Shown here one piece after another: positions 21,623-41,326 of a DNA stretch of 64,000 nucleotides. Numbering within the stretch: the first letter of the stretch is position 1; every line of letters begins with the position of its first letter. Position numbers and translations under genes: made by a program. The notes under the pieces are model-generated. The model was not told the DNA's origin and ran no database searches. It saw nothing but the letters and a program-made list of their open reading frames with translations. Location of the stretch: NCBI GenBank assembly GCA_963801165.1, contig CAWDDT010000006.1:416001-480000 (forward strand), written 5' to 3'. The stretch comes from an uncultured bacterium. Its GTDB lineage: Bacteria > Actinomycetota > Acidimicrobiia > Spongiisociales > UBA5794.

Positions 21623-21645
21623 GCCCGGGACTGTACCCTGTGACG

Positions 21646-23151
21646 ATGCTGACGGCTCGCGACCCTTGGGAACAGCGGCTCGATTGGTTGTTGCGCGTCG
21701 TTCTGTGGGCTTCGCTGACATTTTCCGTGATCGTCACCACGATCGTGTACGGGGCGACTGCCAACGTCGGAATATCGGCACTTCTCGCCGGTGCCTGGGT
21801 GGTTACGATGCAAGTCGTCCCGGACAGCCACCGCAACTCGGAGCAATGGGGTGAGCTGCTTGCGGTCGTTGGTGTGGTCGTCTCGCTGGTCGCGATCGCC
21901 CTGACGGGAGGCGGCGACTCGGCATACGTGCTCTTCCTCGCCGGGGCGCCCCTGTTCGCCGCCAGCTTCCTCGGTACCCGGATCGCATACGAGACCGGCG
22001 CCCTGACCATCGCCGGCTTGTTCGTGATCGCCCGTGCCCTTGGCAAGTCGTTGTTCGACCAGTCGACTTTGCTCTCGGCGCTTCTGTACGCCCTCATCGC
22101 GATCTCTTTCACACAGGTGCGCAGGCTGCTCATCGAGACCCGCGAGAAGAGCGTCGAGCTGATGGCCGCCACGGCCCGGGTGGAGCGTATCCAGAGCGCC
22201 CACACCCTGCTCACAAGCCTCTCGGAGCTGGCCAACATCCAGGAGCTGAACCCGGTCACCATCGGCACGGTCGCTCTGCGCGACCTGTCTGCGACGGTGC
22301 CGTTTGCCGCGGGACGGGTGAGCGTGATCAGGGATGACGGCGACGTGCTGGTCGTAGCCACCCGCGGCGAACCGGACCAGGACACCCCGCCGCAACGCTA
22401 CGACATCGCAATCCGCGGCAACCGGCTCGGCGCCATGGAGCTGTGGCCCATCGCTGATCAGCCGCTACGCGACCATCTCCCGGCGATCCAGCCCATCGTG
22501 AGACAGCTCGGCCTGGCGTTCGACAACGTCGCCCTCGTGCAACGTATCGCCCACCGCACGGTATACGAGGAGCGGGTGCGTCTCGCCAGGGAGCTGCACG
22601 ACAACATCGGTCCCGGCCTCGCCTCGCTCGGACTCCGTCTCGACATGCTCATCTTCCAGGAGACCGACAGCCCGGAGCTGGCGCGTCACCTCGAGGGAAC
22701 CCGGGCGGCGGTAACGGCGCTGGTCGAGGAGGTCCGCACCACCGTGCGGGACCTGAGACACGACAATGTCGCATCCATTGTGGAACAGGCCTACGAGATA
22801 GTGGCCTCCGAGGCAGGATCCGGGCCCGAGATCCACATCGCGATACAGGAGCAACGTCCCCCCCGTCCGGCGGTCGCTGTGGAGCTCCGGGCCATTCTGA
22901 CTGAGGCGGTACGTAACGCGATCGAACACTCGCAGGCAACCCGCCTCTCGATCGAGGGGGCTGTCGACCGCGACAGGGGAAACATCACGGTTGCCGACAA
23001 TGGCCGGGGATTCGACCCCGACGATCTGCCTCCGGGTCACTACGGTGTGCTCGGGATGCGGGAACGAGCCAAGGAGATCGGCGGCACGCTCGAGATCGAA
23101 TCCAGACCATCGGGAGGCAGCCGCGTTACCATCGCATGGGAGGCCGACTGA
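21646..23151 (+). CDS. Membrane sensor histidine kinase, HisKA_3 (NarX/DesK-type), with GAF-like linker
   Basis: About 6 TM helices; EERVRLARELHD H-box; EAVRNAIEH, DNGRGF, GVLGMRER. Confidence 0.92.
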   Translation: MLTARDPWEQRLDWLLRVVLWASLTFSVIVTTIVYGATANVGISALLAGAWVVTMQVVPDSHRNSEQWGELLAVVGVVVSLVAIALTGGGDSAYVLFLAGAPLFAASFLGTRIAYETGALTIAGLFVIARALGKSLFDQSTLLSALLYALIAISFTQVRRLLIETREKSVELMAATARVERIQSAHTLLTSLSELANIQELNPVTIGTVALRDLSATVPFAAGRVSVIRDDGDVLVVATRGEPDQDTPPQRYDIAIRGNRLGAMELWPIADQPLRDHLPAIQPIVRQLGLAFDNVALVQRIAHRTVYEERVRLARELHDNIGPGLASLGLRLDMLIFQETDSPELARHLEGTRAAVTALVEEVRTTVRDLRHDNVASIVEQAYEIVASEAGSGPEIHIAIQEQRPPRPAVAVELRAILTEAVRNAIEHSQATRLSIEGAVDRDRGNITVADNGRGFDPDDLPPGHYGVLGMRERAKEIGGTLEIESRPSGGSRVTIAWEAD

Positions 23152-23152
23152 G

Positions 23153-23782
23153 TTGACCATCAAAATTGTCATCGCCGATGATCACAACATGATGCGGGAG
23201 GGGCTCTCCCAGGCGCTCGACAGCATCCCCGACATCGAAGTGATCGCCAGCGCGGCCGACGGCAGAGAGCTGCTCGAGCGGCTCCAGGAGACAACACCCG
23301 ACGTCATTCTCGTCGACATCGAGATGCCACGTCTCAGCGGTATCGGTGCACTCCGTGAGCTTGTGGGCGGACCACCCGCGATCGTCGTCACCATGCACAG
23401 CGACGAGGCACAACGCAAGAAGGCCGCCGCCGCCGGAGCGAAGGGCTTTCTCTCCAAGGCCGCCCCACTCCCCGACCTGGCCGCAGCCATCAGAGCGGTA
23501 GCCGCAGGCGAGACGCTCATCGACGAGGCAACGACCCCGCAGATCCTAGATCAGCATCGCCAGCCGGTTCTCGACGAGGGAGCAGCGGCATTGACCGCTC
23601 GGGAGCGGGAGCTTCTCAAACTGCTCGCCTCGGGTGTCAGCAGCACGGACGATCTCGCAGACCGTCTCTACATCTCGCAGAAAACGGTGAAGAACCATCT
23701 CGCCAGCATCTACGAGAAGCTCGCCATAACCGATCGTGCCCAGGCCGTCGTCGAAGCGATCCGGCTCGGAATTCACCGGTAG
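23153..23782 (+). CDS. NarL/LuxR-family response regulator
   Basis: IADDH, LVDIEMP receiver; LTARERELLKLL...ISQKTVKNHL HTH; TTG start right after the kinase stop. Confidence 0.94.
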   Translation: MTIKIVIADDHNMMREGLSQALDSIPDIEVIASAADGRELLERLQETTPDVILVDIEMPRLSGIGALRELVGGPPAIVVTMHSDEAQRKKAAAAGAKGFLSKAAPLPDLAAAIRAVAAGETLIDEATTPQILDQHRQPVLDEGAAALTARERELLKLLASGVSSTDDLADRLYISQKTVKNHLASIYEKLAITDRAQAVVEAIRLGIHR

Positions 23783-23824
23783 CTGCGAAATGCGACAAAA
23801 CGTGCGATTGGGTCGACCGACCTA

Positions 23825-23851
23825 TAAAGGTCGCTCCGATCGTGCCGATAC
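23825..23851 (+). promoter_or_regulatory. Sigma28/WhiG-type promoter of flp copy 1
   Basis: TAAA-N15-GCCGATAC versus consensus TAAA-N15-GCCGATAA. Confidence 0.8.
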
Positions 23852-23888
23852 ATCGAGTGGATCACCCTGCCAAGAAGGAAAGAACACC

Positions 23889-24059
23889 ATGCTCCAGATG
23901 TGGATCGCACTCAAGAACCGCTTCGAGACCGAAGATGGCGCCTCGCTCGTCGAGTACGCACTCCTCGTAGCCCTCATCGCCATTGTGGCACTGATCGCCA
24001 TCACGGCGGTCGGCACCAAGGTCTCCGCCAACTTCAGCGAGATCGCCGCAACCCTCTAG
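23889..24059 (+). CDS. flp: Flp (type IVc/Tad) major pilin, copy 1 (TAVGT allele)
   Basis: 56 aa; G|ASLVEYALLVALIAIV class III signal with the Flp E+5/Y+6 motif; AAGGA RBS. Confidence 0.95.
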   Translation: MLQMWIALKNRFETEDGASLVEYALLVALIAIVALIAITAVGTKVSANFSEIAATL

Positions 24060-24081
24060 CCGACCCAACACCTACACACCG

Positions 24082-24112
24082 AATCGGGGCCCCAAACGGA
24101 GGCCCCGATTTC
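24082..24112 (+). terminator. Intrinsic terminator after flp copy 1 (repeated at about 24484-24514 and 24860-24890)
   Basis: AATCGGGGCC / GGCCCCGATT stem followed by TC. Confidence 0.75.
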
Positions 24113-24224
24113 GTATGTGCGATCTTGTCTGTGTCGTCTCTGCCACCACTCTTGGTGTTGGCTGAACCACTACTCCTGGTGTTGGCTGACCACTGACTGT
24201 TGACCGAATGAGTCGATCGACCTA

Positions 24225-24251
24225 TAAAGGTCGCTCCGATCGCGCCGATAC
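24225..24251 (+). promoter_or_regulatory. Sigma28/WhiG-type promoter of flp copy 2
   Basis: TAAA-N15-GCCGATAC. Confidence 0.8.
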
Positions 24252-24290
24252 ATCGATTGGATCACCCTGCCAAGAAGGAAAGACACAACC

Positions 24291-24461
24291 ATGCTCCAGA
24301 TGTGGATCGCACTCAAGAACCGCTTCGAGACCGAAGATGGCGCCTCGCTCGTCGAATACGCACTCCTCGTAGCCCTCATCGCCATTGTGGCACTGATCGC
24401 CATCACGGCGCTCGGCACCAAGGTCTCCGCCAACTTCAGCGAGATCGCCGCAACCCTCTAG
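24291..24461 (+). CDS. flp: Flp pilin, copy 2 (TALGT allele; absent from the ORF track)
   Basis: Manual read ATG 24291 to TAG 24461; same 56 aa apart from V->L. Confidence 0.95.
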   Translation: MLQMWIALKNRFETEDGASLVEYALLVALIAIVALIAITALGTKVSANFSEIAATL

Positions 24462-24602
24462 CCGACCCAACACCTACACACCGAATCGGGGCCCCAAACG
24501 GAGGCCCCGATTTCGTATGTGCGATCTTGTCTGTGCCGTCCCTGCCACCACTCCTGGTGTTGGCTGACCACTGACTGTTGACCGAATGAGTCGATCGGCC
24601 TA

Positions 24603-24629
24603 TCAAGGTCGCTCCGATCGCGCCGATAC
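24603..24629 (+). promoter_or_regulatory. Sigma28/WhiG-type promoter of flp copy 3
   Basis: TCAA-N15-GCCGATAC. Confidence 0.75.
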
Positions 24630-24666
24630 ATCGATTGGATCACCCTGCCAAGGAGGAAAGAAGACC

Positions 24667-24837
24667 ATGCTCCAGATGTGGATCGCACTCAAGAACCGCT
24701 TCGAGACCGAAGATGGCGCCTCGCTCGTCGAATACGCACTCCTCGTAGCCCTCATCGCCATTGTGGCACTGATCGCCATCACGGCGCTCGGCACCAAGGT
24801 CTCCGCCAACTTCAGCGAGATCGCCGCAACCCTCTAG
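24667..24837 (+). CDS. flp: Flp pilin, copy 3 (TALGT allele)
   Basis: Same prepilin motif; AGGAGG RBS. Confidence 0.95.
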   Translation: MLQMWIALKNRFETEDGASLVEYALLVALIAIVALIAITALGTKVSANFSEIAATL

Positions 24838-25034
24838 CCGACCCAACACCTACACACCGAATCGGGGCCCCAAACGGAGGCCCCGATTTCGTATGTGCCG
24901 TCCCTGCCACCACTCTTGGTGTTGGCTGACCACTGACTGTGACCGAATGGGTCGACCGACCCATTGAGCATCGACGTGTACCCGATAGATTGCAGTTAGC
25001 CAAAGGATCACCCTGCCAAGGAGGAAAGAACACC

Positions 25035-25205
25035 ATGCTCCAGATGTGGATCGCACTCAAGAACCGCTTCGAGACCGAAGATGGCGCCTCGCTCGTCGAG
25101 TACGCACTCCTCGTAGCCCTCATCGCCATTGTGGCACTGATCGCCATCACGGCGGTCGGCACCAAGGTCTCCGCCAACTTCAGCGAGATCGCCGCAACCC
25201 TCTAG
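25035..25205 (+). CDS. flp: Flp pilin, copy 4 (TAVGT allele)
   Basis: Same prepilin motif; AGGAGG RBS; upstream promoter region diverged. Confidence 0.95.
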   Translation: MLQMWIALKNRFETEDGASLVEYALLVALIAIVALIAITAVGTKVSANFSEIAATL

Positions 25206-25227
25206 CCGACCCAACACCTACACACCG

Positions 25228-25259
25228 AATCGGGGCCCCCATGTGGGGGCCCCGATTTC
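25228..25259. terminator. Strong, probably bidirectional terminator between flp4 and the convergent tad operon
   Basis: AATCGGGGCCCCC-ATGT-GGGGGCCCCGATT perfect 13-bp stem. Confidence 0.8.
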
Positions 25260-25288
25260 TTGCCAACGGACCGAGGTGCGGCAACCGG

Positions 25289-26626
25289 CTACTTGGCCAT
25301 GACCACGAAGTACTCATCCTGGTATCGATAGTGCCAGCCGAGAAGCTCGAGATACTTGACGAGCGGCCACTCCGCCCTCATCAGAGCCTGATCGATACCG
25401 AACTCAGCGAACGTATCCTCGACCCCGAGACCCGACTTGACGTCGGTGTACTTCTCGAACAGCTCGGCACCGTACAGCTCGGCGCGATCATCGATGAACA
25501 CCCGGCGTTCCGGCCAATCAGCGAAGATCAGGTAGCCACCGACGGCGCTGCCGCTGAACAGCGGGCTGTCATCCAGGGCGGCAAGCGCGGCATCTGATGG
25601 GAACCGGTCCTCCCTCAGTTGCAGCGGTCTGGCAACGGCGGCGACGGCGACTGCGACCAGGAGGGCGGCGATTATCCAGTTGATGACATAGGGCTCCTCG
25701 CGACGCACCGGCGCCGGCGTGTGGCCCGCGAACACCGCCATCGCAAATGGTACGAGAACGATGAAGGCCGGCCACACGTTCCGTTCGGCAAGCAAACCGA
25801 AGAGCATGAACGGAGCCACGATCCACAGATCCCTCGGCTTCACCTTCCCCAATGTGGCCGCGGCCACGATCGCGACCAGCGCTATGCCCAGAGGAATGAG
25901 AAACGGGTTCGTCAAATCGGGCGGTTGCCACTCGCTGATCAGGTCGAGAGCCCCCCGGCTCCTGAAGAACTGCAACACGATCCACCACACGCCGAGACCG
26001 TGTGCCGTCACGGCAGTCGCGACAACGGCGACGCCAACGGCAACGCCTTGACGACGCGACCGCCTCCGTACCGCATCTAGGAGAAGCAGACCGAGACCAA
26101 TAGGAAACGTCCCGTGTATCGATGCCCAAAGCCAGAACAGCGGCGGCAGAAGCCACAGTGGTTTGCGGTCAACGAAGATGAACACAACCGTCAGCGAAAG
26201 CAGCATGTTCCCGATCAAAGCCGGACGGGCGATTGCAAACGGTATTGCCTGCCAGACGACGAACAACAGCCCCGCAAGGGTCAGCCAGAGATGGCCGCCG
26301 ACGACCCGGTACACGACGAGACCCAGCAATGCAACGGTGAGCGACACGATCACGAGCTTCATCATGAGCACCCACTCGATCCCGCCTGTGGTGCGTTCGA
26401 GCCAGCCGTACCCGAGCTCGACCAGCCACGACTGAGTGCGCCAGGCCGACCCCGCGGCGGTGAACGAGAACGGGTCAGTGGTTAGCACGCGACCCGTCGC
26501 CAACTGCTCGGTCCCGGCACGGACATGCCATAGGAACGAGTTGTCTCCTACGGGTAGACCGGCACGCCACGCAACCAGCAAGAAAGGGACGAGCAACCGC
26601 AGATGGGCAACCCGCAGCCTGGTCAC
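25289..26626 (-). CDS. Polytopic membrane protein, putative GT-C-fold glycosyltransferase
   Basis: About 10 TM helices; DNSFLWHVRAG, DPFSFT, LWASIHG, VFIDDRAELYG; last gene of the tad operon. Function is inferred. Confidence 0.6.
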   Translation of the reverse strand: MTRLRVAHLRLLVPFLLVAWRAGLPVGDNSFLWHVRAGTEQLATGRVLTTDPFSFTAAGSAWRTQSWLVELGYGWLERTTGGIEWVLMMKLVIVSLTVALLGLVVYRVVGGHLWLTLAGLLFVVWQAIPFAIARPALIGNMLLSLTVVFIFVDRKPLWLLPPLFWLWASIHGTFPIGLGLLLLDAVRRRSRRQGVAVGVAVVATAVTAHGLGVWWIVLQFFRSRGALDLISEWQPPDLTNPFLIPLGIALVAIVAAATLGKVKPRDLWIVAPFMLFGLLAERNVWPAFIVLVPFAMAVFAGHTPAPVRREEPYVINWIIAALLVAVAVAAVARPLQLREDRFPSDAALAALDDSPLFSGSAVGGYLIFADWPERRVFIDDRAELYGAELFEKYTDVKSGLGVEDTFAEFGIDQALMRAEWPLVKYLELLGWHYRYQDEYFVVMAK

Positions 26627-26629
26627 GGT

Positions 26630-27532
26630 CTACAGGATCGTGTTGACGATTTGGATCGCAGCCGGCCCCAAGAGGACGACGAAGATCCCGGGGAAGATAC
26701 ACAGCACCAACGGGAACGTCATCTTTACCGGGGCAGCAAACGCACGCTCCTGCGCACGCAACCGCCGTCGCACCCGCATCTCGTCCGCCTGCACCCTCAG
26801 CATGCGCGAGATGGACACACCAAAGGCGTCAGCCTGGGTGAGGGCCATGATGAACGTATTGAGATCATCCACGTCGGTCCGCGCGGCGAGAGACTTCAGC
26901 GCCTGGTTACGACTGACGCCGACCCTGGTCTCCTGAAGCATCCTGGAGAACTCATCGCTGAGCTCACCGGGCACGTTCTGGACGACCCTCCCGAGCGCAC
27001 CCTCGAAGCCGAGCCCGGCCTCCACGCTGATGACCAGCAGATCGATGACGTCCGGCAGATCACGCTCCATGGCGCCCTTGCGCTCATCCACGCGGCGGGT
27101 GAGCATGGCCTCAGGTCCGAGAACGCCGATCGCCAGGGAACCAATGACGCCGGCAAGACGGGCGGTACCCTGCAGCTGGCTGTTGACGAAAAACGCAAGC
27201 ACAACTCCGAATACGAGAGAAAGCACTCGGATCACGGCCCACGAGTTCGAGTCGAGACGTGATGACCAACCCCCGATCATCAACCGCTTCTCAACGCGAG
27301 CGCCCCACCCCTGTGGGGTGTATCGCATGAAGACTCGCCCGACGCCCTGGAACAACGGTGCGACGGCACGTTCGGAGAATCCTCGCTCGAGTAGCTCGGA
27401 ACGCGTTTCTCGCAACCCGGCGAGACGCCGGGAGGCGCTGGCACGGGCTTTGAGAACTCCCCCGCCGACAAACACCGCTGCCGCACCTATGGTGACCCCA
27501 ACGGCAATGGCGGCAAATAGAGCTTGATCCAT
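26630..27532 (-). CDS. tadC: Tad pilus assembly protein TadC (T2SS F family)
   Basis: DLLVISVEAGLGF, GVSISRMLRVQA, PVKMTFPLVLCIFP. Confidence 0.93.
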   Translation of the reverse strand: MDQALFAAIAVGVTIGAAAVFVGGGVLKARASASRRLAGLRETRSELLERGFSERAVAPLFQGVGRVFMRYTPQGWGARVEKRLMIGGWSSRLDSNSWAVIRVLSLVFGVVLAFFVNSQLQGTARLAGVIGSLAIGVLGPEAMLTRRVDERKGAMERDLPDVIDLLVISVEAGLGFEGALGRVVQNVPGELSDEFSRMLQETRVGVSRNQALKSLAARTDVDDLNTFIMALTQADAFGVSISRMLRVQADEMRVRRRLRAQERAFAAPVKMTFPLVLCIFPGIFVVLLGPAAIQIVNTIL

Positions 27533-28587
27533 CAGACATCCACCTTCACGATTTTGGACAGCCAGTAGACCCCTGCGACGAGCAGGAGCACCGCCCCACC
27601 GAGGGCGATCAAACCCTTTGTGGAATCCAACATGGGTTGCAGGTACTCGCGTCGGGTGAGGAACAGGAAAAGGAACAAGAAGACGGGCAGAGAGCCGAGC
27701 ACGTATGCCGAAACCCGTCCCTCAGCGGTGAGGGCCTTCATCTCTCGCCGCAGCCGGTTTCGCTGCAGCATCGTGTCGGCTGCCGTCTGGAGCACCTCCG
27801 CGAGGTTGCCGCCAACCTCGCGCTGGATGCTGATCGCCAGCACCGCCCAGTCGAAGTCCAACGACTCCATCCGGTCTGCGACCTGTTTCAGCGCCACCAC
27901 CGGGGACCGGCCGAGACGGGTCTCGTTCATCGCTCGCCCGAACTCCCGCGCCGTCGGCTCGGGCGCCTCGGAGGCAACAGCCTCGACCGCCTGCAACAGC
28001 GAGTAGCCAGACCGCAACGAGGTCGAAAGCAGGTTGAGCGTATCCGGTAGCTGGTTCTCGAACTTCGTCTTGTGCCGTGCAGCGATTCCCTGAATGAGAA
28101 ACACGGCAACACCAAGCACGAAGGCGGCAGCGACCGCGCCCCAGATCAGATTCCGCATGTAAACCATGATCAGCAGGCCGAAGATGATCGCGATGCCCAG
28201 GATACCGGCGATTGCCTCACCGGGGCGAAGCGGCATATTGGCCTGATCGAGCGCCGTCTCGATCTGGTTGATGAAGCCACGATCCCTGGCGATGTCCTCG
28301 GCCCCCACCACAAACCGGCGCAGCAGCGGGATCCGGGAGAGGCGACCCCCTTCCTCAGCCTTGCCCGACAGAGAGCCGAGCCTGCCCCGCAGGTCACGCT
28401 CAACCCCGGCGTTCGACCCGAACAGGATGACGATCAGCAGGAACAACGCCAACCCGGCCCCAACCGCACCGCCGAGAAGCATAACGTCCTGGGTCCCGCT
28501 TGTGCCCGATGTCTGGGCGAGGGCCGGGGCTGCGGTCGTCGTCACAATGGTGACGACACCGAGAACAAGATAGAACAGTCTCTGCAT
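27532..28587 (-). CDS. tadB: Tad pilus assembly protein TadB (T2SS F family)
   Basis: FENQLPDTL..LRSGYSL, IQREVGGNLAEVL, ALTAEGR. Confidence 0.93.
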   Translation of the reverse strand: MQRLFYLVLGVVTIVTTTAAPALAQTSGTSGTQDVMLLGGAVGAGLALFLLIVILFGSNAGVERDLRGRLGSLSGKAEEGGRLSRIPLLRRFVVGAEDIARDRGFINQIETALDQANMPLRPGEAIAGILGIAIIFGLLIMVYMRNLIWGAVAAAFVLGVAVFLIQGIAARHKTKFENQLPDTLNLLSTSLRSGYSLLQAVEAVASEAPEPTAREFGRAMNETRLGRSPVVALKQVADRMESLDFDWAVLAISIQREVGGNLAEVLQTAADTMLQRNRLRREMKALTAEGRVSAYVLGSLPVFLFLFLFLTRREYLQPMLDSTKGLIALGGAVLLLVAGVYWLSKIVKVDV

Positions 28588-28589
28588 GT

Positions 28590-29939
28590 CTACCGTCCTA
28601 CGAATGGCTCTGGGGCAAACAACTCTGCCGGCAGATTTACACCGTAGTCGGCCAAACGGTCGCTGAACGACGGTCTGATGCCGGTGGCCTTCAGCCGGCC
28701 CCGGAACATCCCGTTCTCATCCATGCCCATCCCGTAGTCGAAGAGGAACAGATCCTGGGTGGTGATGATGTCCCCCTCCATCCCGACGACTTCGGTGACC
28801 TGAGTGACCTTACGGGTGCCGTCACGCATCCGGTTGAGGTGAACGATGAGGTCGACCGCCGAGGAAACCTGCTCACGAATCGCTCGCACCGGCAACTCCA
28901 TGCCGGCCATCAGCACCATCGTCTCGATACGGGAAAGTGTGTCCCGCGGAGTGTTCGAGTGGATCGTTGTCAGCGATCCGTCGTGACCGGTGTTCATAGC
29001 CTGGAGCATGTCGAGAGCCTCACCACCACGAACCTCACCGACGACGATACGGTCGGGCCGCATACGCAGTGTGTTGCGGACGAGATCACGGATAGTGACC
29101 TGACCCTTTCCTTCGATGTTGGCGGGACGGCCCTCGAGAGACAGCACGTGCATCTGATTGAGCCGAAGCTCGGCGGCGTCCTCAACGGTGATGATGCGCT
29201 CTGTGTCCGGGATGAAGCTCGACAGGACGTTCAGCAAAGTCGTCTTACCTGAGCCGGTACCGCCCGAGACGATGACGTTGAGCCGCCCGTATACACATCG
29301 ACGCAGGAAACCGGCCACCTGGTCGGACAATGCGCCCATCTTCACTAGCTGGTCGGATGTGAACGGGTCAGCCGAGAATTTACGAATCGTCAGGAAGGGA
29401 CCGCCGATGGCGAGCGGATGGATCACAGCGTTGACACGAGAGCCATCCGGGAGCCGAGCGTCGACCATCGGAGTCGATTCATCGATACGACGACCCACCT
29501 GGCCGACGATCTTCTCGATGATCCTCTCGAGGTGCGTGGCATCGACAAACCGGGTGTCGGAAAGGCTGAGACGACCGGCGCGCTCGACCCAGACCTGATG
29601 CGGGCCGTTGACCATGACCTCAGTTATGTTCTCGTCTGACAGGAACGGATCGATCGGGCCGTAGCCGAGAACGTCGTCGGCGATCTCTTGTAGAAGGGCA
29701 ACCCGGTCGGCGCGTGCCAGGGGAACCGATTCTTCCTGATCGAGTGCCCATTCGAGCATCTCCATGACGCGCAGCTTGAGCTCTGCGTCGCTCATCTGAC
29801 GGTCGTAGAGCATCGGCCCGAGGCCCTCGACGACCTTGTAGTGGAGCTTACGCCTCAGCTCCTGGACGATCTCTTCACGGTGACCTTCGACGGTCACCTC
29901 TGCTGCTTTCGCTGCCTTGACGCGATCGGCGAGACTCAT
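28590..29939 (-). CDS. cpaF: Tad pilus ATPase CpaF/TadA
   Basis: [46 protein letters not shown]. Confidence 0.97.
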
Positions 29940-29967
29940 ATGCAGTCCATTCCTGGTCGGTTCCTAC

Positions 29968-31152
29968 TCACCTGAACCATCGGCGTTTCCCGCCTTCGCC
30001 TTCACCGTCTTCTAGCTCTCCCTCGTCGAGGACGAGCTGAGCGACCCCGCGCAGGTCCCTAGCCACACGGCTGCGGGGGTACAGGGAGACGACCGGTTCT
30101 CCTTCGTTGACCGCACGGGGGACGAGTTTGTCCGACGAAACGGCCGCCTGGACCTCGAGACCCAGCGAGCGTTCCAGCTCACCGATATCGAGACGGGCCT
30201 TGGAATTGACCCGGTTCAGCACCAGCTTCATCTTCTCGAACGGGAACTTGATGAGACGCAGTGTGTCGAGCGCCAGCTTGGCATTCTTGACTGCGGGCAG
30301 ATCCATGTCCACAACGAGGAGCACAACGTCCGAGCGCTCGAGAATCGACAGTACCGGTTCATCGAGGAAGGGAGCGGTGTCGATCACGATGTAGTCGAAC
30401 ATCCTCTTGAGCATGCCAATCGACTTGACCACGACCTGGGTGGATACCTCGTCTGCAAGGGAGGGTTCCAACGGTGCGGACAACACCCGCATACCGGAGG
30501 AGTGTCTCGCCAGGAGGCTGTCGAGCAGGTCCTCATCCAGCTTGTCGATGTCGCGTGCCACGTCAACGATGGTGTGCCGCGGGTCGATCTGCAACGAGAT
30601 GCATACATCACCAAACTGGAGATCGGCATCGAGAACGACGACCCGGGACGGATCGCCCCAGCCTGCCAGCGTGAGCGCAACGTTGACGGTAGTCATCGTC
30701 TTTCCTGCGCCACCCTTCGGTGACATGATCGTCACGACCTTGCCGATCTTGCGCTTGGCGGGGCCTTCTTCTTCCCGCCGGTGAATCTGCTCGATGAGAC
30801 CAAAGGCGTCCTCGACCTTGGAGTTGGTGAGCGGTACCTCGATTACATCCTTTATGCCCGCCCGCAGAGCCGCACGGAGAACATTGGTGTCAACCGATTC
30901 AGCGACCAGCACAACCGGCAGATCGGCACGCACGTCGAACAGGAGGGTCACCTCTACCACCCCGGCCTCGTGTGCGTAAGAGGGACCGGCGATGGTCAGG
31001 TCGATCGACTCCTCAACGAGGCGGCGCTGAGCATCGCTGATGTTGCGTGCCGTGTGGACCTTGTGGCCCTCCAGCAGCGAGCGCGTCGCTTCGACGAACT
31101 GGTCGTCGTTGTCGACAACTAGAACCGAATACGTCGCGTTATCCGTTGCCAA
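29968..31152 (-). CDS. cpaE: CpaE/TadZ (atypical receiver plus MinD-like ATPase)
   Basis: Receiver-like N-terminus without the phospho-Asp; SPKGGAGKT, DADLQFGD; located between cpaB and cpaF. Confidence 0.9.
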   Translation of the reverse strand: MATDNATYSVLVVDNDDQFVEATRSLLEGHKVHTARNISDAQRRLVEESIDLTIAGPSYAHEAGVVEVTLLFDVRADLPVVLVAESVDTNVLRAALRAGIKDVIEVPLTNSKVEDAFGLIEQIHRREEEGPAKRKIGKVVTIMSPKGGAGKTMTTVNVALTLAGWGDPSRVVVLDADLQFGDVCISLQIDPRHTIVDVARDIDKLDEDLLDSLLARHSSGMRVLSAPLEPSLADEVSTQVVVKSIGMLKRMFDYIVIDTAPFLDEPVLSILERSDVVLLVVDMDLPAVKNAKLALDTLRLIKFPFEKMKLVLNRVNSKARLDIGELERSLGLEVQAAVSSDKLVPRAVNEGEPVVSLYPRSRVARDLRGVAQLVLDEGELEDGEGEGGKRRWFR

Positions 31153-32167
31153 GGAGGACTCCTGCCTCTTCGAACTGTAGGCGAATCCGCTCGATGAGCG
31201 AGAACAGGTCGTCGATAACCACACCATCGGAGGTGAACGGGTCGTAGACCTTTTCCTGACCGTTCTCATTCTCGCCGCTCGGTATCAGCGACAGCGCCAC
31301 ATCCGTGTACTGGGAGGCGAACTGGATCTCTTCAGCCTGCTCGGGAGTCACCTCGAGCACGACGATCTGAGCGCCCGCCGGCGTCAAGCCGGTGCCCAAT
31401 GGGCTGGGGCGCGTATCGGGACCGACCGCCAGTACCTCGATGTCCTGGAGGACCGTCTGGGTGAAGTCGATCGAACCGGGGAATGTCTGCGCATAGCGGG
31501 CGATGATGTCCTGTTGGGTCGTCGTACCCTGGTCACCCGACGGAGGAGTCGTGGTCGTCGTCTGGGTCGCCGTCCCATCGCCGAGCAGCAGCGAGCGCAG
31601 CTCCGGATCTTCAAACAGTGAGGTCGACTGGGTGAGGTCGATAGACGCCGACGCAATCAGGTTGACCCGGTCCCCCGGACGCACGAACCCACCCACCGTG
31701 TTCTCCTCATTGGGTCGGAACGAGATCGCGACCTTGCCCTCGGGTACAGATTCCGAGAGTTTGATATTGGAGAGGAGGTTGGGAGCGATGAACATGTCCG
31801 CGGTGATCAACTGGCCGGCGCTAATCGGTCCGGCGGCAACGTTGATGGGGTCGATGATCGACTCGAGGCGCGGGTTATTGGCACAGACGTTGAGCGGAGC
31901 CGAACTGGTATCGGTGGGGCCGGCGCATGCAATCTGCGATCCCTCGAAAACCACCGACTCGACGAGGCCTGAGGATTCCTTGATGAAATCCTTCGCCTCG
32001 GCAGCCGTGGTCCCGGTATCGATGAACTCCGTGGCTCGATACACAATGACCTCTTGCACGTTGGCCCGTGCGTCTGATTCTACCGTCGACAAGTACTGCC
32101 ACACGGAGAACGCCGACACCGCAGCCAATGCCAGCGCGATGATCAATACCAGGGATCGTCTACCCAT
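31139..32167 (-). CDS. cpaB: Flp pilus assembly protein CpaB/RcpC
   Basis: N-terminal TM; VPEGKVAIS, VGGFVRPGDRV, VLQDIEVLAV, LEVTPEQA. Confidence 0.92.
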   Translation of the reverse strand: MGRRSLVLIIALALAAVSAFSVWQYLSTVESDARANVQEVIVYRATEFIDTGTTAAEAKDFIKESSGLVESVVFEGSQIACAGPTDTSSAPLNVCANNPRLESIIDPINVAAGPISAGQLITADMFIAPNLLSNIKLSESVPEGKVAISFRPNEENTVGGFVRPGDRVNLIASASIDLTQSTSLFEDPELRSLLLGDGTATQTTTTTPPSGDQGTTTQQDIIARYAQTFPGSIDFTQTVLQDIEVLAVGPDTRPSPLGTGLTPAGAQIVVLEVTPEQAEEIQFASQYTDVALSLIPSGENENGQEKVYDPFTSDGVVIDDLFSLIERIRLQFEEAGVLLGNG

Positions 32168-36799: not shown

Positions 36800-38356
36800 C
36801 TACTCAACGAGCGAGACGGGATTGCCCTCTATGTGCGCCGACCAGGTGGTGGTGTCGCGGGCGCCACCGGCCGCGCTCACCTGATACGTGACCTTGATGG
36901 TCCACCAGCAGTCGCCCGAGCAGGTGTAATCGTCGGGGATGTCAACGCGGATCTGCACCTGACCGTCGTCGTAATCGTTGGGGCCGTACGAGACGCTGCA
37001 CGGATCGTATGTGGCCCCAGTGGCACTCCAGGTACACGACGGCGAGGTGCCGTCCGGCTTGAAGATCTCGGTCTTGATGTTGCCGGAGTCTGGATCCCAC
37101 AACTCGACCACCATCTCCTTGCCGGCGTGAACCGGCTGCACCTCGGCCAGGTCGAACGTAGCCGTTTGTCCAGAGAAGTTCACGTATATCGACATGTCAC
37201 CCAGACCGTAGAGGCGCGGGCTGCCATTGTTGGCCGATGCCCGCAGCGAGTAGCGATTGAGGCCCCTGCCGCCGTCGTTGGCGACCACAACCCTCAGCGG
37301 ATAGACACCGGCGCCGGCATTGAAGGTCGTGCCACACATGCGGTCCCACAGCGACGCGACCCCACCGGGGACACCGATCTCGACGTCGTCCCAATTCAGC
37401 TCGCCGTCGCCGTTCTGGTCATCGCCCGCGTTCACAAATCCGTCGCCGTTGAAGTCGGCGAAACTGTCCTGGGGGTCGTACTTGACCGAGCAGAGCACGG
37501 TGTTGTCGGTCGTGTTGAGCGGCGTTGGGTCGGGGGCGTAGAGAATGAACCACGTCGTCGGCGGCGGGTCCCCCCAGTGTGTGTTGTCGCCGACCAGGAC
37601 GTTGTCTCCGCCCCCGCGGTAGAACGGACCGTCAAAAACCTCGACCGATAGATCCGTCGCACCATCGGGAACTTCGACCCCATAGAGGTACCCACCGCTC
37701 GTAGGAACGCCACCGCTCGTTGCCGTCGGCCGAGCGTCCGGGTTCTTCGCGCAACTGCTGCCGGTGTCGTCGTGGAGGCATTGTGATGCAAAACGGTCAC
37801 CCAACTGGCGTCCCGTGTAATAGCCGTGGATGTTGGCCCAGAAGTGCGGCTCACGGCCGGGAATGCTCGGGTCCTCACCGAAGTACGGCAGATTGCTGCC
37901 CATCGGGAGCGGCAACACGTACTCGGCAACCGCTGTGCGCGACATCGTGATCGAGTCGAAGCCGAAGACACGCATGAAGAAGGTGTCGACAGTATCGGTG
38001 ACCGTAACCCGGAGCTGGAACTGATTGTCAACCGCGGTCGCGTCGTCGGAATAGTCGACGGGAGTCACCGTCGTGCCACCCACGCCGTCGACATATCCGT
38101 TGTCGCCGGCGATGGCATCTGCCGTGTCGTACGCCTGGGTCTGGTCACCCGGTTCGTAGACGACGCCGGCGAGAGCCGCGGCGTCTGCGCCGTGCTGGAT
38201 CCTGATCCCGTTGAGGTACAGCCACCCGAAGTCGACAGAAAATGCGGCGAAGCCGAGCAGCACCGTCATACTTGCGGCGACGAGGACAACAGCGGCCCCC
38301 GCCTCGGCACGCTCGCTGAACCCGAGCTTGGCAACGATGCGTCGAGCCAGTTTCAC
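36800..38356 (-). CDS. TadG-like pilus tip/minor pilin with large Cys-containing extracellular domain (paralogue 2)
   Basis: G|AAVVLVA...SVDFGWLY...ADAAALAG Tad N-terminal motif. Confidence 0.85.
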   Translation of the reverse strand: MKLARRIVAKLGFSERAEAGAAVVLVAASMTVLLGFAAFSVDFGWLYLNGIRIQHGADAAALAGVVYEPGDQTQAYDTADAIAGDNGYVDGVGGTTVTPVDYSDDATAVDNQFQLRVTVTDTVDTFFMRVFGFDSITMSRTAVAEYVLPLPMGSNLPYFGEDPSIPGREPHFWANIHGYYTGRQLGDRFASQCLHDDTGSSCAKNPDARPTATSGGVPTSGGYLYGVEVPDGATDLSVEVFDGPFYRGGGDNVLVGDNTHWGDPPPTTWFILYAPDPTPLNTTDNTVLCSVKYDPQDSFADFNGDGFVNAGDDQNGDGELNWDDVEIGVPGGVASLWDRMCGTTFNAGAGVYPLRVVVANDGGRGLNRYSLRASANNGSPRLYGLGDMSIYVNFSGQTATFDLAEVQPVHAGKEMVVELWDPDSGNIKTEIFKPDGTSPSCTWSATGATYDPCSVSYGPNDYDDGQVQIRVDIPDDYTCSGDCWWTIKVTYQVSAAGGARDTTTWSAHIEGNPVSLVE

Positions 38357-38931
38357 GGGGAAGCTCCAAAGACGTCAGGCTCGAGACGGACCAGCGCCCG
38401 CTCTACGAAGTTGCGGTCGAGGTACGGGAGAATATTGGTCACCGGGGTGTGGTGGTAGGTGATCTCGACACCGAGGACATCCAGACCACCACCGGTCGGC
38501 TCGAGAGTGGTGTCCCGATCGTCCGGGGGCCAGCCGGCGCCACCGTAGGAAAAGCCGGGGATATTGGGATCCGGACACGGAGTCCACTTGCACAGCGGGT
38601 CGCTGCCATCGTACTGGTAGCGGTCGTACGCACCCGTCTTCGCCCCGGTGTCGGGATCCGCCTTGAAGATGTCGACCTGCACGATCACACCGGGGTCTAC
38701 CTGACCATACAGACCCACTTCGATCGCCTCGAGGATCCTGATGTCGGCCTCGGCCCGGTTGCCCATCGTCGCACCGGTGCGACCGGCGGAGTTGGCAGCT
38801 GATGCGACCGTGAGACGCTCTTTGAAGGCAAGACCAAACTCGAGCGAGCCGAGGATGAGCAGGATCAGCAGCGGCAGGACAAACGCCATCTCAACGAGTG
38901 TTGCCCCGTCCTCGCGTTTGATGTTTTTCAT
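38353..38931 (-). CDS. TadE/TadF-family minor pilin (paralogue 2)
   Basis: G|ATLVEMAFVLPLLILLILGSLEFG; start moved to MKNIKR. Confidence 0.9.
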   Translation of the reverse strand: MKNIKREDGATLVEMAFVLPLLILLILGSLEFGLAFKERLTVASAANSAGRTGATMGNRAEADIRILEAIEVGLYGQVDPGVIVQVDIFKADPDTGAKTGAYDRYQYDGSDPLCKWTPCPDPNIPGFSYGGAGWPPDDRDTTLEPTGGGLDVLGVEITYHHTPVTNILPYLDRNFVERALVRLEPDVFGASP

Positions 38932-39093
38932 ATCGTCCCCTGCCCGGTCAGTTTTCGTGGAGACTACCACACGCATTCGTGCGACCACTCTGCGTGAGTA
39001 TAGCTGTCCCGGCCACAATTATCTAGAGGGGCATCATATGCACGTCGGACGGCTACCGGAAGACACTCCGTGACATAGGCATGTACTGACTAG

Positions 39094-39120
39094 TTATCGG
39101 TCGGTCGCGCCGACGTTCAG
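39094..39120 (-). promoter_or_regulatory. Possible sigma28-type promoter for the second tadE-tadG pair
   Basis: Minus strand CTGA-N15-ACCGATAA; -10 near consensus, -35 weak. Confidence 0.45.
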
Positions 39121-40679
39121 GGAACGAGGTGAATCGGCTGACCGTTGACCGATGCAGTCCAGGTGGTGCGGTCGGTAATACCGGCAGAGACGCCGTAGCT
39201 CACGTACACCCAGCAGTCATCGCCGCTGCACGTGTAGTCAGGCGGGACCGTGAACTTGAAGTCGAGCCAGTCGTTGTTGTAGTCACCGGTGTTGAACGTG
39301 AGGTAGCAGTTGGCCCTACCGTCGTCGGGGGCATAGGGGCTCTTGACCCCACCGCTGTCAAAGCGAACCTGCATCTTGCAGTCGATGTTGTTTATCGGCG
39401 CTGCTGCGTTGGGGTTGTCGAACTGCAGTGTTCCCGACGAAGAAGACCCGATGTCGGATACGTCCCAGAGACTGATGACCAGTTCCGCCCCGGCGTAGAC
39501 CTCGTCGAGCCGGGCGATCTTGAATACGGGGTTGGACCCCGTGTCGGTCTGCCACAACGACATCGCCCCCAACCCGTAGACCTGGGTGTCGTTCGACGTC
39601 GAACCGCCCACCAATGTCCGCAGCGAGAAGCCGTTGATGACGTTGGTGTCGTTCTGTACGGACACCTCGACGACATAGATTCCCGCCGAGGCGTTGGGGA
39701 TGGTGCAGATGGTGTCCCAGGCATTCTTGGCACCCGACTCGTAGCTTCCCGAACCGCGACTGTGGTAGTCCGCGTAGCAGAGCTGTACCGAGTTGTCCTT
39801 CCACTGGTTCGGGGTTGCGTCTGGTGCGTAAACCTTGAAGACGGTCACGTTCTTGGACCCGGGGTCGGACGCGTAGCCGCCGGCGGCCCCGGCCGTTGCA
39901 CCGCTGCCGTATTGCCAGTCCTCGGCGGGACCGTCTCCGCCGACATTGTTGCCATCGCCATCGGTGTCATGGGTCACCCCGTCATAGACCTGGATCTGGA
40001 CGCTGTGGCCCTCACTCGCTGAGCCCGGGACGACCTCCACGGCGTACCAGTACGCCGGCGACCGTCGCTCGAAGTTGAGCGAGCCGCCGTCGAGCCACCA
40101 CGATGCATAGGCGTCTCCGGATCCCTTGCCGCGATCCTTCCCCGAGATGGCGAGGTAGAACTGGCGGAGTCTGGCGCCCCCGAGAGTTGGGTCCTCCCCC
40201 AGATATGACTCGTCGCTGCCGATCTTGAGCGGTGGCAGCTGCTCGGCCGTAGCCGTCTCGTTGATCTTGAAGCTATCGCGGCCAAAAACGCGCATGAAGA
40301 ACGTGTCGACTGTGGTGGCGACGTTGACACTGAGCTGGTTGCAGTTGGCCCCCTTGCTCGGCGTCACCGTCGCGTTTGCGCCGTGCTCGTACCCCTGGCT
40401 AAAAGCAAGCTCGAGCGCGGTTGCGTAGGCCTCGGTGCCGAGGACGGGATCCCCACAACCGGGCAACGGCATGTGGACAACCCCGGCAAGAGCGGCGGCC
40501 TCGGCCGCCTTCTCGACCTTGAGTTGGTTGTAGTAGAGCCAACCGAGGTCGACGGCGAACGCGGCCATTCCCAGCAAGATCACCAAAGAGAGCGCGGTCA
40601 GCACGAGCACGACACCGCGCTCGCGATCATCATGAGAGAGCCTTCTCACCAGGGGCAATTTGCGCAGCAGTCTCATCAT
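39117..40679 (-). CDS. TadG-like pilus tip/minor pilin with large Cys-containing extracellular domain (paralogue 1)
   Basis: ERG|VVLVLTAL...AVDLGWLY...AEAAALAG; colinear similarity to 36800..38356. Confidence 0.85.
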   Translation of the reverse strand: MMRLLRKLPLVRRLSHDDRERGVVLVLTALSLVILLGMAAFAVDLGWLYYNQLKVEKAAEAAALAGVVHMPLPGCGDPVLGTEAYATALELAFSQGYEHGANATVTPSKGANCNQLSVNVATTVDTFFMRVFGRDSFKINETATAEQLPPLKIGSDESYLGEDPTLGGARLRQFYLAISGKDRGKGSGDAYASWWLDGGSLNFERRSPAYWYAVEVVPGSASEGHSVQIQVYDGVTHDTDGDGNNVGGDGPAEDWQYGSGATAGAAGGYASDPGSKNVTVFKVYAPDATPNQWKDNSVQLCYADYHSRGSGSYESGAKNAWDTICTIPNASAGIYVVEVSVQNDTNVINGFSLRTLVGGSTSNDTQVYGLGAMSLWQTDTGSNPVFKIARLDEVYAGAELVISLWDVSDIGSSSSGTLQFDNPNAAAPINNIDCKMQVRFDSGGVKSPYAPDDGRANCYLTFNTGDYNNDWLDFKFTVPPDYTCSGDDCWVYVSYGVSAGITDRTTWTASVNGQPIHLVP

Positions 40680-40687
40680 GGCACTCC

Positions 40688-41326
40688 CTAGAACTGCTGT
40701 GGTTCCATACGCATCGTCGTCCTGTCCACCCAGCAGTTTCCAGGTGGCGAGGTGCATGAGACATCAGGCAGGGGCACCAGACCCCCGGTGATCCATACAT
40801 GCGAGAAGACGATGTCGACACCCATCACATCGAGGGTGCCCACCTGGACATTCCGGCTGTCCGGGGTCCACGACCCGCCGTAGCCGCCGCTGCCATCGTC
40901 GCCCGGACACGGATTCCAGTCACACAACGGTCCGGGGCCATCCCGGTAGTTGTAGTAGTACCTGACACAGTCACCGCCCGGGCATCCGCCGACCGGGTTA
41001 CCGTTCACATCGGACTTGTAGAAGTCGACATACTTGACGACCCCAACCCCGCCACTCGGCAGGTTGGAGAGAGTCTGCTCCAGAGCTTCGAGCATCACCT
41101 GGTCGGCCTCGGGGCCGTTGCCGACCGCAGTCCCGACCCTGGCCGCCGATTGCCCGGCGTTGCCGATGGTCAGTCGATCTCTGAAGGCAAGACCGTACTC
41201 CATGATCCCAAAGAGGATCATCAGCAGCAGCACCGCTACCAGCGCAAACTCCACCATTGACGATCCGTCCTGATCTTCAAAGGCTCCCTTGCGGAGAGTG
41301 GTCATTCGACTACGCATAGTGGTCAT
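40688..41326 (-). CDS. TadE/TadF-family minor pilin (paralogue 1)
   Basis: G|SSMVEFALVAVLLLMILFGIMEYG. Confidence 0.9.
   Translation of the reverse strand: MTTMRSRMTTLRKGAFEDQDGSSMVEFALVAVLLLMILFGIMEYGLAFRDRLTIGNAGQSAARVGTAVGNGPEADQVMLEALEQTLSNLPSGGVGVVKYVDFYKSDVNGNPVGGCPGGDCVRYYYNYRDGPGPLCDWNPCPGDDGSGGYGGSWTPDSRNVQVGTLDVMGVDIVFSHVWITGGLVPLPDVSCTSPPGNCWVDRTTMRMEPQQF

Follow-up and report, generated by a model that had tools for sequence, protein, structure and literature searches.

Four tandem flp pilin genes in an uncultured member of the Acidimicrobiia, with coding sequences that group by genome and promoters that appear to group by position

Results

Structure of the flp array

The window, that is, the whole stretch of 64 000 nucleotides analysed here (G000:C6:416001-480000), is part of the genome of an uncultured member of the Acidimicrobiia from soil and salt marsh, and carries a tandem array of four flp genes predicted to encode the major subunit of a Tad (type IVc) pilus. 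The coding sequences (CDSs) of the array grouped by genome, whereas the promoters in front of them appeared to group by position in the array across several species, a contrast that, as far as sequence can tell, indicates gene conversion between old paralogues. The genome, G000, is a metagenome-assembled genome (MAG) of 4.55 Mb in 13 contigs, 98.2% complete and with an estimated contamination of 5.59%. The four open reading frames (ORFs) lie head to tail on the plus strand and comprise 56 codons (171 bp) each. The genes and the sequence elements assigned to them are as follows, RBS standing for ribosome-binding site and TRF for Tandem Repeats Finder:

23889..24059, plus strand, flp copy 1, haplotype A (G66, G121; Val41)
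24291..24461, plus strand, flp copy 2, haplotype B (A66, C121; Leu41), with a leader box at 24259-24271 and a hairpin at 24480-24516
24667..24837, plus strand, flp copy 3, haplotype B, with a leader box at 24637-24649 and a hairpin at 24856-24892
25035..25205, plus strand, flp copy 4, haplotype A, identical to copy 1, with a leader box at 25005-25017
24143..24193, plus strand, 24-bp tandem duplication in spacer 1-2 (TRF period 24, 2.2 copies; alignment)
23805..23828, plus strand, putative operator of copy 1, CGATTGGGTCG-AC-CGACCTATAAA, 25.1 bits
24205..24228, plus strand, putative operator of copy 2, 31.2 bits
24583..24606, plus strand, putative operator of copy 3, 26.4 bits
24944..24967, plus strand, putative operator of copy 4, a perfect 9-2-9 palindrome, AATGGGTCG-AC-CGACCCATT, 28.1 bits, 18/24 positions self-complementary
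24966..25004, plus strand, putative promoter core of copy 4 (TTGAGC, 16 nt, TAGATT), unlike copies 1-3 and closest to the last copy of G003
23859..23888, plus strand, leader of copy 1, box GGATCACCCTGCC (23859-23871) and RBS (AAGAAGGA)
24078..24114, plus strand, hairpin of copy 1, GC-rich and followed by GAUUUCG, -24.2 kcal/mol, z -4.66
25227..25258, plus strand, hairpin of copy 4, a perfect 14-bp stem with a different loop at the end of the repeat, -30.6 kcal/mol, z -4.82

The only differences among the four CDSs are at position 66 (G/A, the synonymous pair GAG/GAA) and position 121 (G/C, V41L); copy 1 equals copy 4 and copy 2 equals copy 3, giving the haplotype order ABBA. The Val/Leu codon 41, at window positions 24009, 24411, 24787 and 25155, corresponds to position 24 of a mature pilin with a predicted length of 39 residues, in which the four copies are otherwise alike. 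The start-to-start periods are 402, 376 and 368 bp, the first being the longest because of the 24-bp duplication in spacer 1-2, and a 14-bp piece found in the other two spacers (1-2 and 2-3) is missing from spacer 3-4. TRF reported a single array at 23805-25259 (period 402, 3.8 copies, 88% matches) with a score of 2165, which is far above chance. An earlier reading of the window from its letters alone (the original prediction) had described four near-identical tandem units with two CDS differences, the order ABBA and these three periods, and ORFs, alignment and TRF confirmed all of this.

Comparison of coding sequences and promoters

CDS identity within genomes was 98.8-100% in G000, 98.8% in G003, 98.2-99.4% in G005 and 99.4% in both G013 and G022, compared with a maximum of 88.7% between genomes. 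In a maximum-likelihood tree of 16 same-genus CDSs, all six multi-copy genomes fell each on one side of a branch, the six label changes being the minimum, with support values of 98/98 for G000, 96/96 for G005, 100/99 for G013 and G014, 93/96 for G002 and 62/27 for G003.

The promoters followed a different pattern, with two types that recur in several species. One type, CGACCTAT(A/C)AAG ... GCCGATAnAT ... CGAG(T/A)GGATCACC, precedes the first copies of G000, G003 and G014 and the second copy of G005. The other, CGACCCATTGAG ... CGATAGATT ... TTAGCCA, is the last-copy type of G000 and G003, with related forms in G005, G014 and the single-copy genome G009; CGACCCATTG is carried by the last copies of G000 and G003 and by the single copy of G009. 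In its promoter core G000 copy 4 shared 70% identity with G003 copy 2 and only 51-55% with G000 copies 1-3, and G000 copy 1 shared 77% with G003 copy 1 and 80% with G005 copy 2. A tree of the promoter cores (56 columns) joined four of the five last-copy promoters with support of 70/57.

The same division was visible inside the array. Between operator and leader the four units differ in 24 of 54 aligned columns, 20 of which set copy 4 apart, whereas from the leader box through the CDS, the 3' untranslated region (UTR) and the first arm of the hairpin they differ in only 5 of 236 (Fisher p 1e-15). When units 1-3 were compared by themselves, 10 of 84 promoter columns and 2 of 224 transcribed columns varied (p 6e-5). 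Silent and untranslated sites are as uniform as the protein, and therefore selection on the protein cannot explain the uniformity.

Individual variable sites gave conflicting patterns. The ABBA order ascribed to the CDSs by the original prediction held there, at both variable sites, and was also found outside them, at two sites of the left operator half (23811 and 23817); it did not extend to the RBS, where site 23875 is AABB. An ABAA pattern was found at 23884, and AAAB at 20 sites between 23823 and 23858, the core particular to copy 4, and again from the hairpin loop onward. The patterns ABBA, AABB and AAAB, all within ~300 bp, cannot be reconciled with one another. ABBA and AABB alone already yield all four combinations, which requires that an exchange or a recurrent change took place at least once. 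All four combinations of the two CDS sites were likewise present across samples: G-G in the window and run X1, A-C in the window and run X2, G-C in run X6 and A-G in the RNA run X18. The order ABBA does not itself call for conversion, a nested duplication of the inner B unit being sufficient to produce it; conversion is needed for the identity of copies 1 and 4. The contrast between coding sequences and promoters is what a two-copy state older than the species, with later homogenisation of the coding parts, would be expected to leave.

Sequence coverage of the array

The array was checked against k-mer contigs, which break at repeats, of four public sequencing runs, the RNA run X18 included. 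In run X1 the flanks had depths of 4.4-6.6, the contig of the flp CDS 17.3 and the hairpin piece common to units 1-3 15.8, and the unit-specific spacers 1-2 and 3-4 had depths of 5.65 and 6.82 respectively. In run X2 the CDS contig reached 30.8 with flanks of 7.1-10.4. Over the three DNA runs the shared CDS stood at ~2.3-3.5x the flank depth; such contig depth is a poor measure of copy number, and three and four copies are indistinguishable in any single run. Run X6 yielded a contig of 408 bp (24288-24693), about one period plus the word length, which leads from copy 2 via the spacer into copy 3 at a depth of 8.45 with flanks of 3.6. Parts of units 2-3 were without cover in X1, which counts neither for nor against the array, and no joints representing deletion forms across the array were reported in the k-mer contigs of the four runs. 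The depth figures fit three to four copies rather than one or two. Read depth and spanning sequence had been proposed as the means of recognising one or two copies concatenated by the assembler, and with the shared CDS at multiple depth, the unique spacers at single depth and a contig bridging copies 2 and 3, the outcome was in favour of the array, which appears to be real.

Organisation of the cassettes

Each copy had been predicted to be a self-contained unit. The cassette structure supports this, with the qualification that the promoter core and hairpin loop of copy 4 are unlike those of copies 1-3. A palindrome of 20-24 bp, consensus (A/T)AT(A/G)GGTCG-NN-CGACC(C/T)AT(A/T), was found 5' of every flp copy; in 15 of 16 same-genus copies 71-80 nt separate its centre from the ATG downstream, and before copy 1 of G003 it is a perfect 12-2-12 palindrome. 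A weight matrix built solely from 11 sites of other genomes was run over the 4.55-Mb genome, and the five best sites were those of its five flp genes: the four of the array (25.1-31.2 bits) and the site at G000:C6:106909-106932 (22.7 bits), which belongs to a fifth, diverged flp described below. The next best site scored 16.9. The palindrome was kept in the family- and order-level relatives G022, G021 and G037, which have the gene order histidine kinase, response regulator, flp, and was absent in G016, which is without that order. It is probably the site of a dimeric regulator, and the response regulator encoded immediately upstream (23150-23782) would be the likeliest candidate to bind it, with all copies switching together.

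Regulators of the LuxR/NarL family work through palindromic boxes of the lux box type, which overlap the -35 region. Here too an inverted repeat of 20-24 bp lies just upstream of, and overlaps, the -35-like hexamer of each putative flp promoter, and the gene of a GerE-type regulator is adjacent. The right half of operator 4 overlaps the -35-like TTGAGC, where copies 1-3 have the poorer ATAAAG. If the -10-like TAGATT is the -10 element, the centre of the palindrome would be near -42.5, a position typical of activators.

The leader box lies directly 5' of the RBS and is found at exactly four places in the genome, one for each copy. It is kept in 15 of 16 same-genus copies and also in same-family relatives, and presumably resembles the 3' end of 16S rRNA. 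The leaders showed no significant fold (z 0.63 and 0.27), and a sequestering of the RBS by the GGATCACCC box was discarded as an idea. The hairpins of copies 1-3 (-24.2 kcal/mol), like that of copy 4, follow an identical 3' UTR after the stop codon. A search of Rfam at a permissive threshold found no known RNA family in 23600-25400; the one match, MH_s15 on the minus strand, was at chance level (15.2 bits; gathering threshold 123).

The Tad locus

The genes surrounding the array are listed below, the five genes of the assembly operon after the operon itself, with M445 as the name used here for the 445-residue membrane protein:

21640..23151, plus strand, sensor histidine kinase, NarX/NarQ-like (Pfam HisKA_3 1.5e-11, HATPase_c 5e-14)
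23150..23782, plus strand, NarL/LuxR-type response regulator with a receiver (REC) domain and a GerE helix-turn-helix (Pfam Response_reg 6.1e-25, GerE 8.3e-15)
25289..26626, minus strand, M445, a 445-aa polytopic membrane protein with a predicted GT-C glycosyltransferase fold, last gene of the tad operon
26630..32167, minus strand, tad assembly operon (Pfam RcpC, AAA_31/CbiA and Response_reg, T2SSE, T2SSF twice)
31139-32167, minus strand, rcpC/cpaB
29968-31269, minus strand, tadZ/cpaE with a REC domain
28590-29939, minus strand, tadA/cpaF
27532-28587, minus strand, tadB
26630-27532, minus strand, tadC
36800-38356, 38353-39018, 39117-40757 and 40688-41326, minus strand, TadE/TadG-like minor pilin genes (Pfam TadE, Tad; PF07811 genome search)

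The Flp protein matched Pfam Flp_Fap (PF04964) with 33.4 bits (curated cut-off 32.2; E 3.9e-8). Flp prepilins are marked by a short leader ending in Gly, followed by xxxxEY and a hydrophobic helix, and this arrangement was present: the leader ends in Gly (...ETEDG/ASLVEYALLVALIAIV...) and xxxxEY and a hydrophobic helix follow. Residues G17, A18, E22 and Y23 were invariant in 12 aligned Flp sequences from relatives. On this showing the four genes are the major-subunit block of a Tad (type IVc) pilus locus, and assembly into a filament is predicted.

The histidine kinase gene opens a kinase-regulator-flp module and has an adjacent orthologue in eight of ten relatives; its NCBIfam matches were below cut-off. 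The response regulator aligned over its full length with models of the NarL family, with scores under their cut-offs, and its stop codon lies just upstream of the first flp copy, as it does in G003, G005, G013, G014 and G009. The tad operon is downstream of the array and convergent to it, and rpsA and polA separate the TadE/TadG-like genes from the operon. The sole PF01478 match in the genome, an A24 prepilin peptidase (C6:146905-147231, 50.3 bits), is on the same contig but outside the window and the locus.

The TadZ/CpaE homologue has an N-terminal receiver match (E 1.6e-7) in addition to its ParA/MinD-type ATPase domain. As listed, the tadZ ORF overlaps the upstream rcpC ORF by ~130 bp, and because of this overlap the true start of tadZ is probably further in. 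The fifth flp gene, at C6:106650, is diverged (56% identity) and unlinked to the array. Short tandem repeats with 4-5 copies of a ~21-bp unit lie in front of this gene and another short tandem repeat lies 3' of it, all within G000:C6:106500-107100 and so outside the window; the gene has the palindrome and is without the GGATCACCC leader box.

Distribution in relatives and in the class

Close flp matches were found in all 14 same-genus genomes searched. Of ten relatives, for each of which 8-20 kb was fetched, nine had two to five tandem flp copies, and eight kept the order histidine kinase, response regulator, flp(n) and convergent M445-tadC-tadB-tadA, with n from 1 to 4. Variation in flp copy number, which had been thought possible, was therefore found among related genomes at the orthologous locus itself.

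In a wider set of 80 fetched species-representative loci, 46 had at least two same-strand flp copies (29 two, 8 three, 7 four and 2 five), and ten had a pair at least 95% identical in DNA. In an even sample of 150 high-quality Acidimicrobiia genomes, 76 had an flp match and at least 37 of these had tandem flp genes (at least two same-strand matches within ~700 bp) among the matches listed; this count was made from the listed coordinates, 38 further matches being unlisted. Tandem flp is common in the class on both counts, which removes the ground for calling the array an undescribed system, and with near-identical pairs so often found, the accompanying statement that flp copies are typically diverged does not hold for the Acidimicrobiia.

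Contig breaks inside or next to flp were seen in short-read MAGs, for example at loci L038, L042, L043, L045, L050, L056, L060 and L062, and seven of 34 apparently single-copy loci were cut at flp. The copy number of flp pilin genes is systematically under-counted in short-read MAGs of the class Acidimicrobiia, because short-read contigs end at flp.

The neighbouring protein with a predicted GT-C fold

M445 was present in the loci of nine of ten relatives at 37-72% identity. It matched no Pfam family at E up to 1 and no NCBIfam family, and so belongs to none of the curated families of the PMT_2, STT3 or similar kind. An AlphaFold model from a 10-sequence alignment reached pLDDT 80.2 and pTM 0.81, and in a Foldseek search of the PDB with this model ranks 1-34 were all GT-C enzymes (STT3, AglB, PglB, DPY19, ArnT, ALG9/12, Aft), the best E being 1.2e-5 and the query-normalised TM up to 0.58. 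A feature-based Atlas search pointed to clusters of PMT_2, STT3 and Dpy19 with a feature score of 0.92, which is a lead only.

The Pseudomonas aeruginosa protein TfpW is a GT-C pilin glycosyltransferase. M445 resembles it as a polytopic enzyme of predicted GT-C fold encoded beside pilin genes, though M445 has no sequence-family match. Judged from the model, M445 may be a glycosyltransferase acting on the pilin or the envelope. An NFS sequon is present in this Flp but is not kept in G005, G002, G014 or G009, and so gives no support for a link between the GT-C enzyme and the pilin.

Discussion

A model of the array

We consider the following model as a whole to be likely. Each cassette would be autonomous, its palindromic operator being followed by a promoter core, a leader that has a strong RBS and no structure, a prepilin gene and a GC-rich hairpin. 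The array would go back to an older two-copy ancestor, common to the sister species, in which the first copy had one promoter type and the last copy another. An inner unit with the first promoter type would have gained four changes and then have been duplicated in tandem, giving the order ABBA. Gene conversion or unequal crossing-over would keep the leader, CDS, 3' UTR and first hairpin arm identical and leave the promoter cores and spacers to diverge, and tandem duplication and loss would set the copy number. The upstream response regulator would switch all copies together via the shared operator. Because the mature pilins of the four genes differ in nothing but Val or Leu at one position, the outputs of the cassettes would add up, supplying what is presumably the most-demanded protein of pilus assembly, and dosage is the likely function of the array.

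Several observations weigh against this model. A consensus scan of 23700-25400 returned no promoter-like and no terminator-like sites, the elements named here being below its thresholds, and the named promoter hexamers match 8 of 12 consensus positions. The run of at least five T expected of an intrinsic terminator is missing: GATTTCG or GATTTCTT, with only three T, follows the stem, and it is because this run is short that the terminator scan returned nothing. The sole RNA contig was a 180-bp metatranscriptome piece over the CDS (X18), which is not proof of transcription. In favour of a link between operator and regulator, an operator-like site was present in 47 of 59 loci with an adjacent response regulator gene and in three of nine without (68 of the 80 loci had enough upstream DNA), but the Fisher p of 0.008 is overstated, the loci being related and a few of them having supplied training sites. 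The positional orthology of the promoters rests on shared motifs and pairwise identity; in the approximately unbiased (AU) test a tree that keeps G000 promoters 1-4 together, although 10.8 log-likelihood units worse, was not rejected (p-AU 0.13), and neither was that for G003 (0.135). Of the proposal that conversion keeps the array uniform, the homogenised copies, seen in all six multi-copy genomes of the CDS tree, stand, the promoters appear to match by position, and the formal test falls short of significance. Finally, no k-mer contig of the four runs spanned the whole array.

The last point leads to the question of whether the metagenome assembler could have created the array artificially, by joining flp genes from different strains of which each had only one or two copies or fewer. 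The estimated contamination of the MAG and the differences in flp haplotype between runs would allow this, as would the lack of a spanning contig. The spacers, however, are individually marked by indels (the 24-bp duplication and the 14-bp deletion), spacers 1-2 and 3-4 both had single depth in X1 with the shared CDS and hairpin pieces at ~3x, and the contig from X6 joins two copies. Near-complete relatives are also arranged alike (G037, 2 contigs, four copies; G021, 6 contigs, two copies), and the contigs of short-read relatives break exactly at flp, as at 12 of the 80 loci, where no more than 60 nt lie between a copy and the end of the contig. We regard an artefact as highly improbable.

If the array is real, its copies might be alike simply because they are young, each species having lately amplified its own flp with no conversion involved. 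Copy numbers from 1 to 4 at the same locus would agree with this, as would the AU results for promoter trees arranged by genome; units 1-3 of G000, with promoter cores 90-95% alike, are plainly recent, and the same alternative was given by Wang and Chen for tandem flagellin genes in the part of their paper available (PMC6053082). It does not account well for two promoter types that are common to several species, nor for copies 1 and 4 of G000, which differ at ~45% of promoter-core positions and yet agree at 171 of 171 CDS positions and, apart from RBS position 23875, throughout the stretch that starts with the leader box and ends with the first arm of the hairpin; the uniformity of the protein extends to synonymous sites and the 3' UTR. 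Independent recent duplication consequently appears rather doubtful to us. A purposeful maintenance of Val41 and Leu41 pilins, co-assembling or serving different conditions, is unlikely, and we give it little credence. In three genomes of the genus (G000, G005, G002; L030, L033) the same GTC/CTC difference does separate copies of one array, and the copies of each allele have their own promoters and small operator and RBS differences, but the change is conservative, at a position that varies freely among relatives in the class, and the arrays of G003, G013 and G014 have Val only. In X2 only the Leu haplotype was present, at ~3.5x flank depth, and in X1 only a Val contig was listed, and the occurrence of all four combinations with the synonymous site fits neutral shuffling. 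An antigenic-variation cassette of the pilE/pilS type was rejected, all four copies being complete, equipped with expression signals and one conservative residue apart.

The model of autonomous cassettes held alike by conversion can be carried further, to a version which we put forward very tentatively and think doubtful. The array would then be the copy-number-plastic output stage of the kinase/NarL-type module, acting via an operator private to flp; the inner cassettes, with a weak -35, would be activator-dependent and the last, with better hexamers, basal; the number of inner cassettes, 0-3 depending on the species and perhaps also on the strain, would set the amplitude of a pilin burst; conversion would keep the product uniform; the GT-C enzyme would modify the pilin; and Val and Leu would make a two-isoform filament.

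Comparison with known systems

Tad loci with several flp genes are not new. One is that of Aggregatibacter (flp-1/flp-2), and in the Pasteurellaceae the flp genes head the tad operon, whereas the array described here is convergent to it. Another is flp1-flp2-flp3 of Haemophilus ducreyi, as given in the accessible portion of the source (PMC3201912). The available text on Bdellovibrio describes four flp genes, in 2017 the largest and most diverse complement known, which are not interchangeable (PMC5430801); flp1-4 of that organism are similar to the present genes in being several short Flp genes in one genome alongside tad-type assembly genes, but they are diverse and differently regulated according to the same partial text, in contrast to copies that are 98.8-100% identical, each with its own operator and hairpin. 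Papers on Bradyrhizobium, Sinorhizobium, Phenylobacterium, Prosthecochloris and the type IV filament superfamily, as far as their accessible text extends, deal with flp paralogues or tad clusters and describe no near-identical arrays.

For the uniformity of the copies, the closest parallels are tufA/tufB and the tandem flagellins of the Alteromonadales, which share with the array a similarity greater within than between genomes, uniform synonymous sites and abundant products; the array differs in having four copies, distinct promoters and visible borders of the tract, at the leader box and at the first hairpin arm. A survey of concerted evolution in prokaryotes gives 26 genes, including tuf and a tandem flagellin pair, and in the available part of its text no pilin is listed and 'pilin' and 'pilus' have 0 occurrences (PMC6053082). 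In the full-text literature, with tad papers in subscription journals outside the scope of the search, no description was found of flp arrays in the Acidimicrobiia or of their homogenisation or regulation. The arrangement is ordinary for Tad loci and not a new system, multi-copy Flp genes evolving in concert being of a known kind; the array in this class is undescribed in the literature that could be searched.

Significance for the Acidimicrobiia

The array offers a clean natural case in which copies of a subunit in high demand would be kept identical as their promoters drift, with the borders of the homogenised tract visible. Tad pili serve adhesion and surface sensing in many bacteria, and almost nothing is known of them in the Acidimicrobiia, a common uncultured group of soil and sediment. 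The parts most worth following are the flp operator with its two-component system and the Tad-linked GT-C enzyme: the flp-specific palindrome together with the two-component system amounts to a predicted regulon for the whole class, and a putative, unannotated family of GT-C glycosyltransferases that travels with the tad operon in the Acidimicrobiia is a testable lead.

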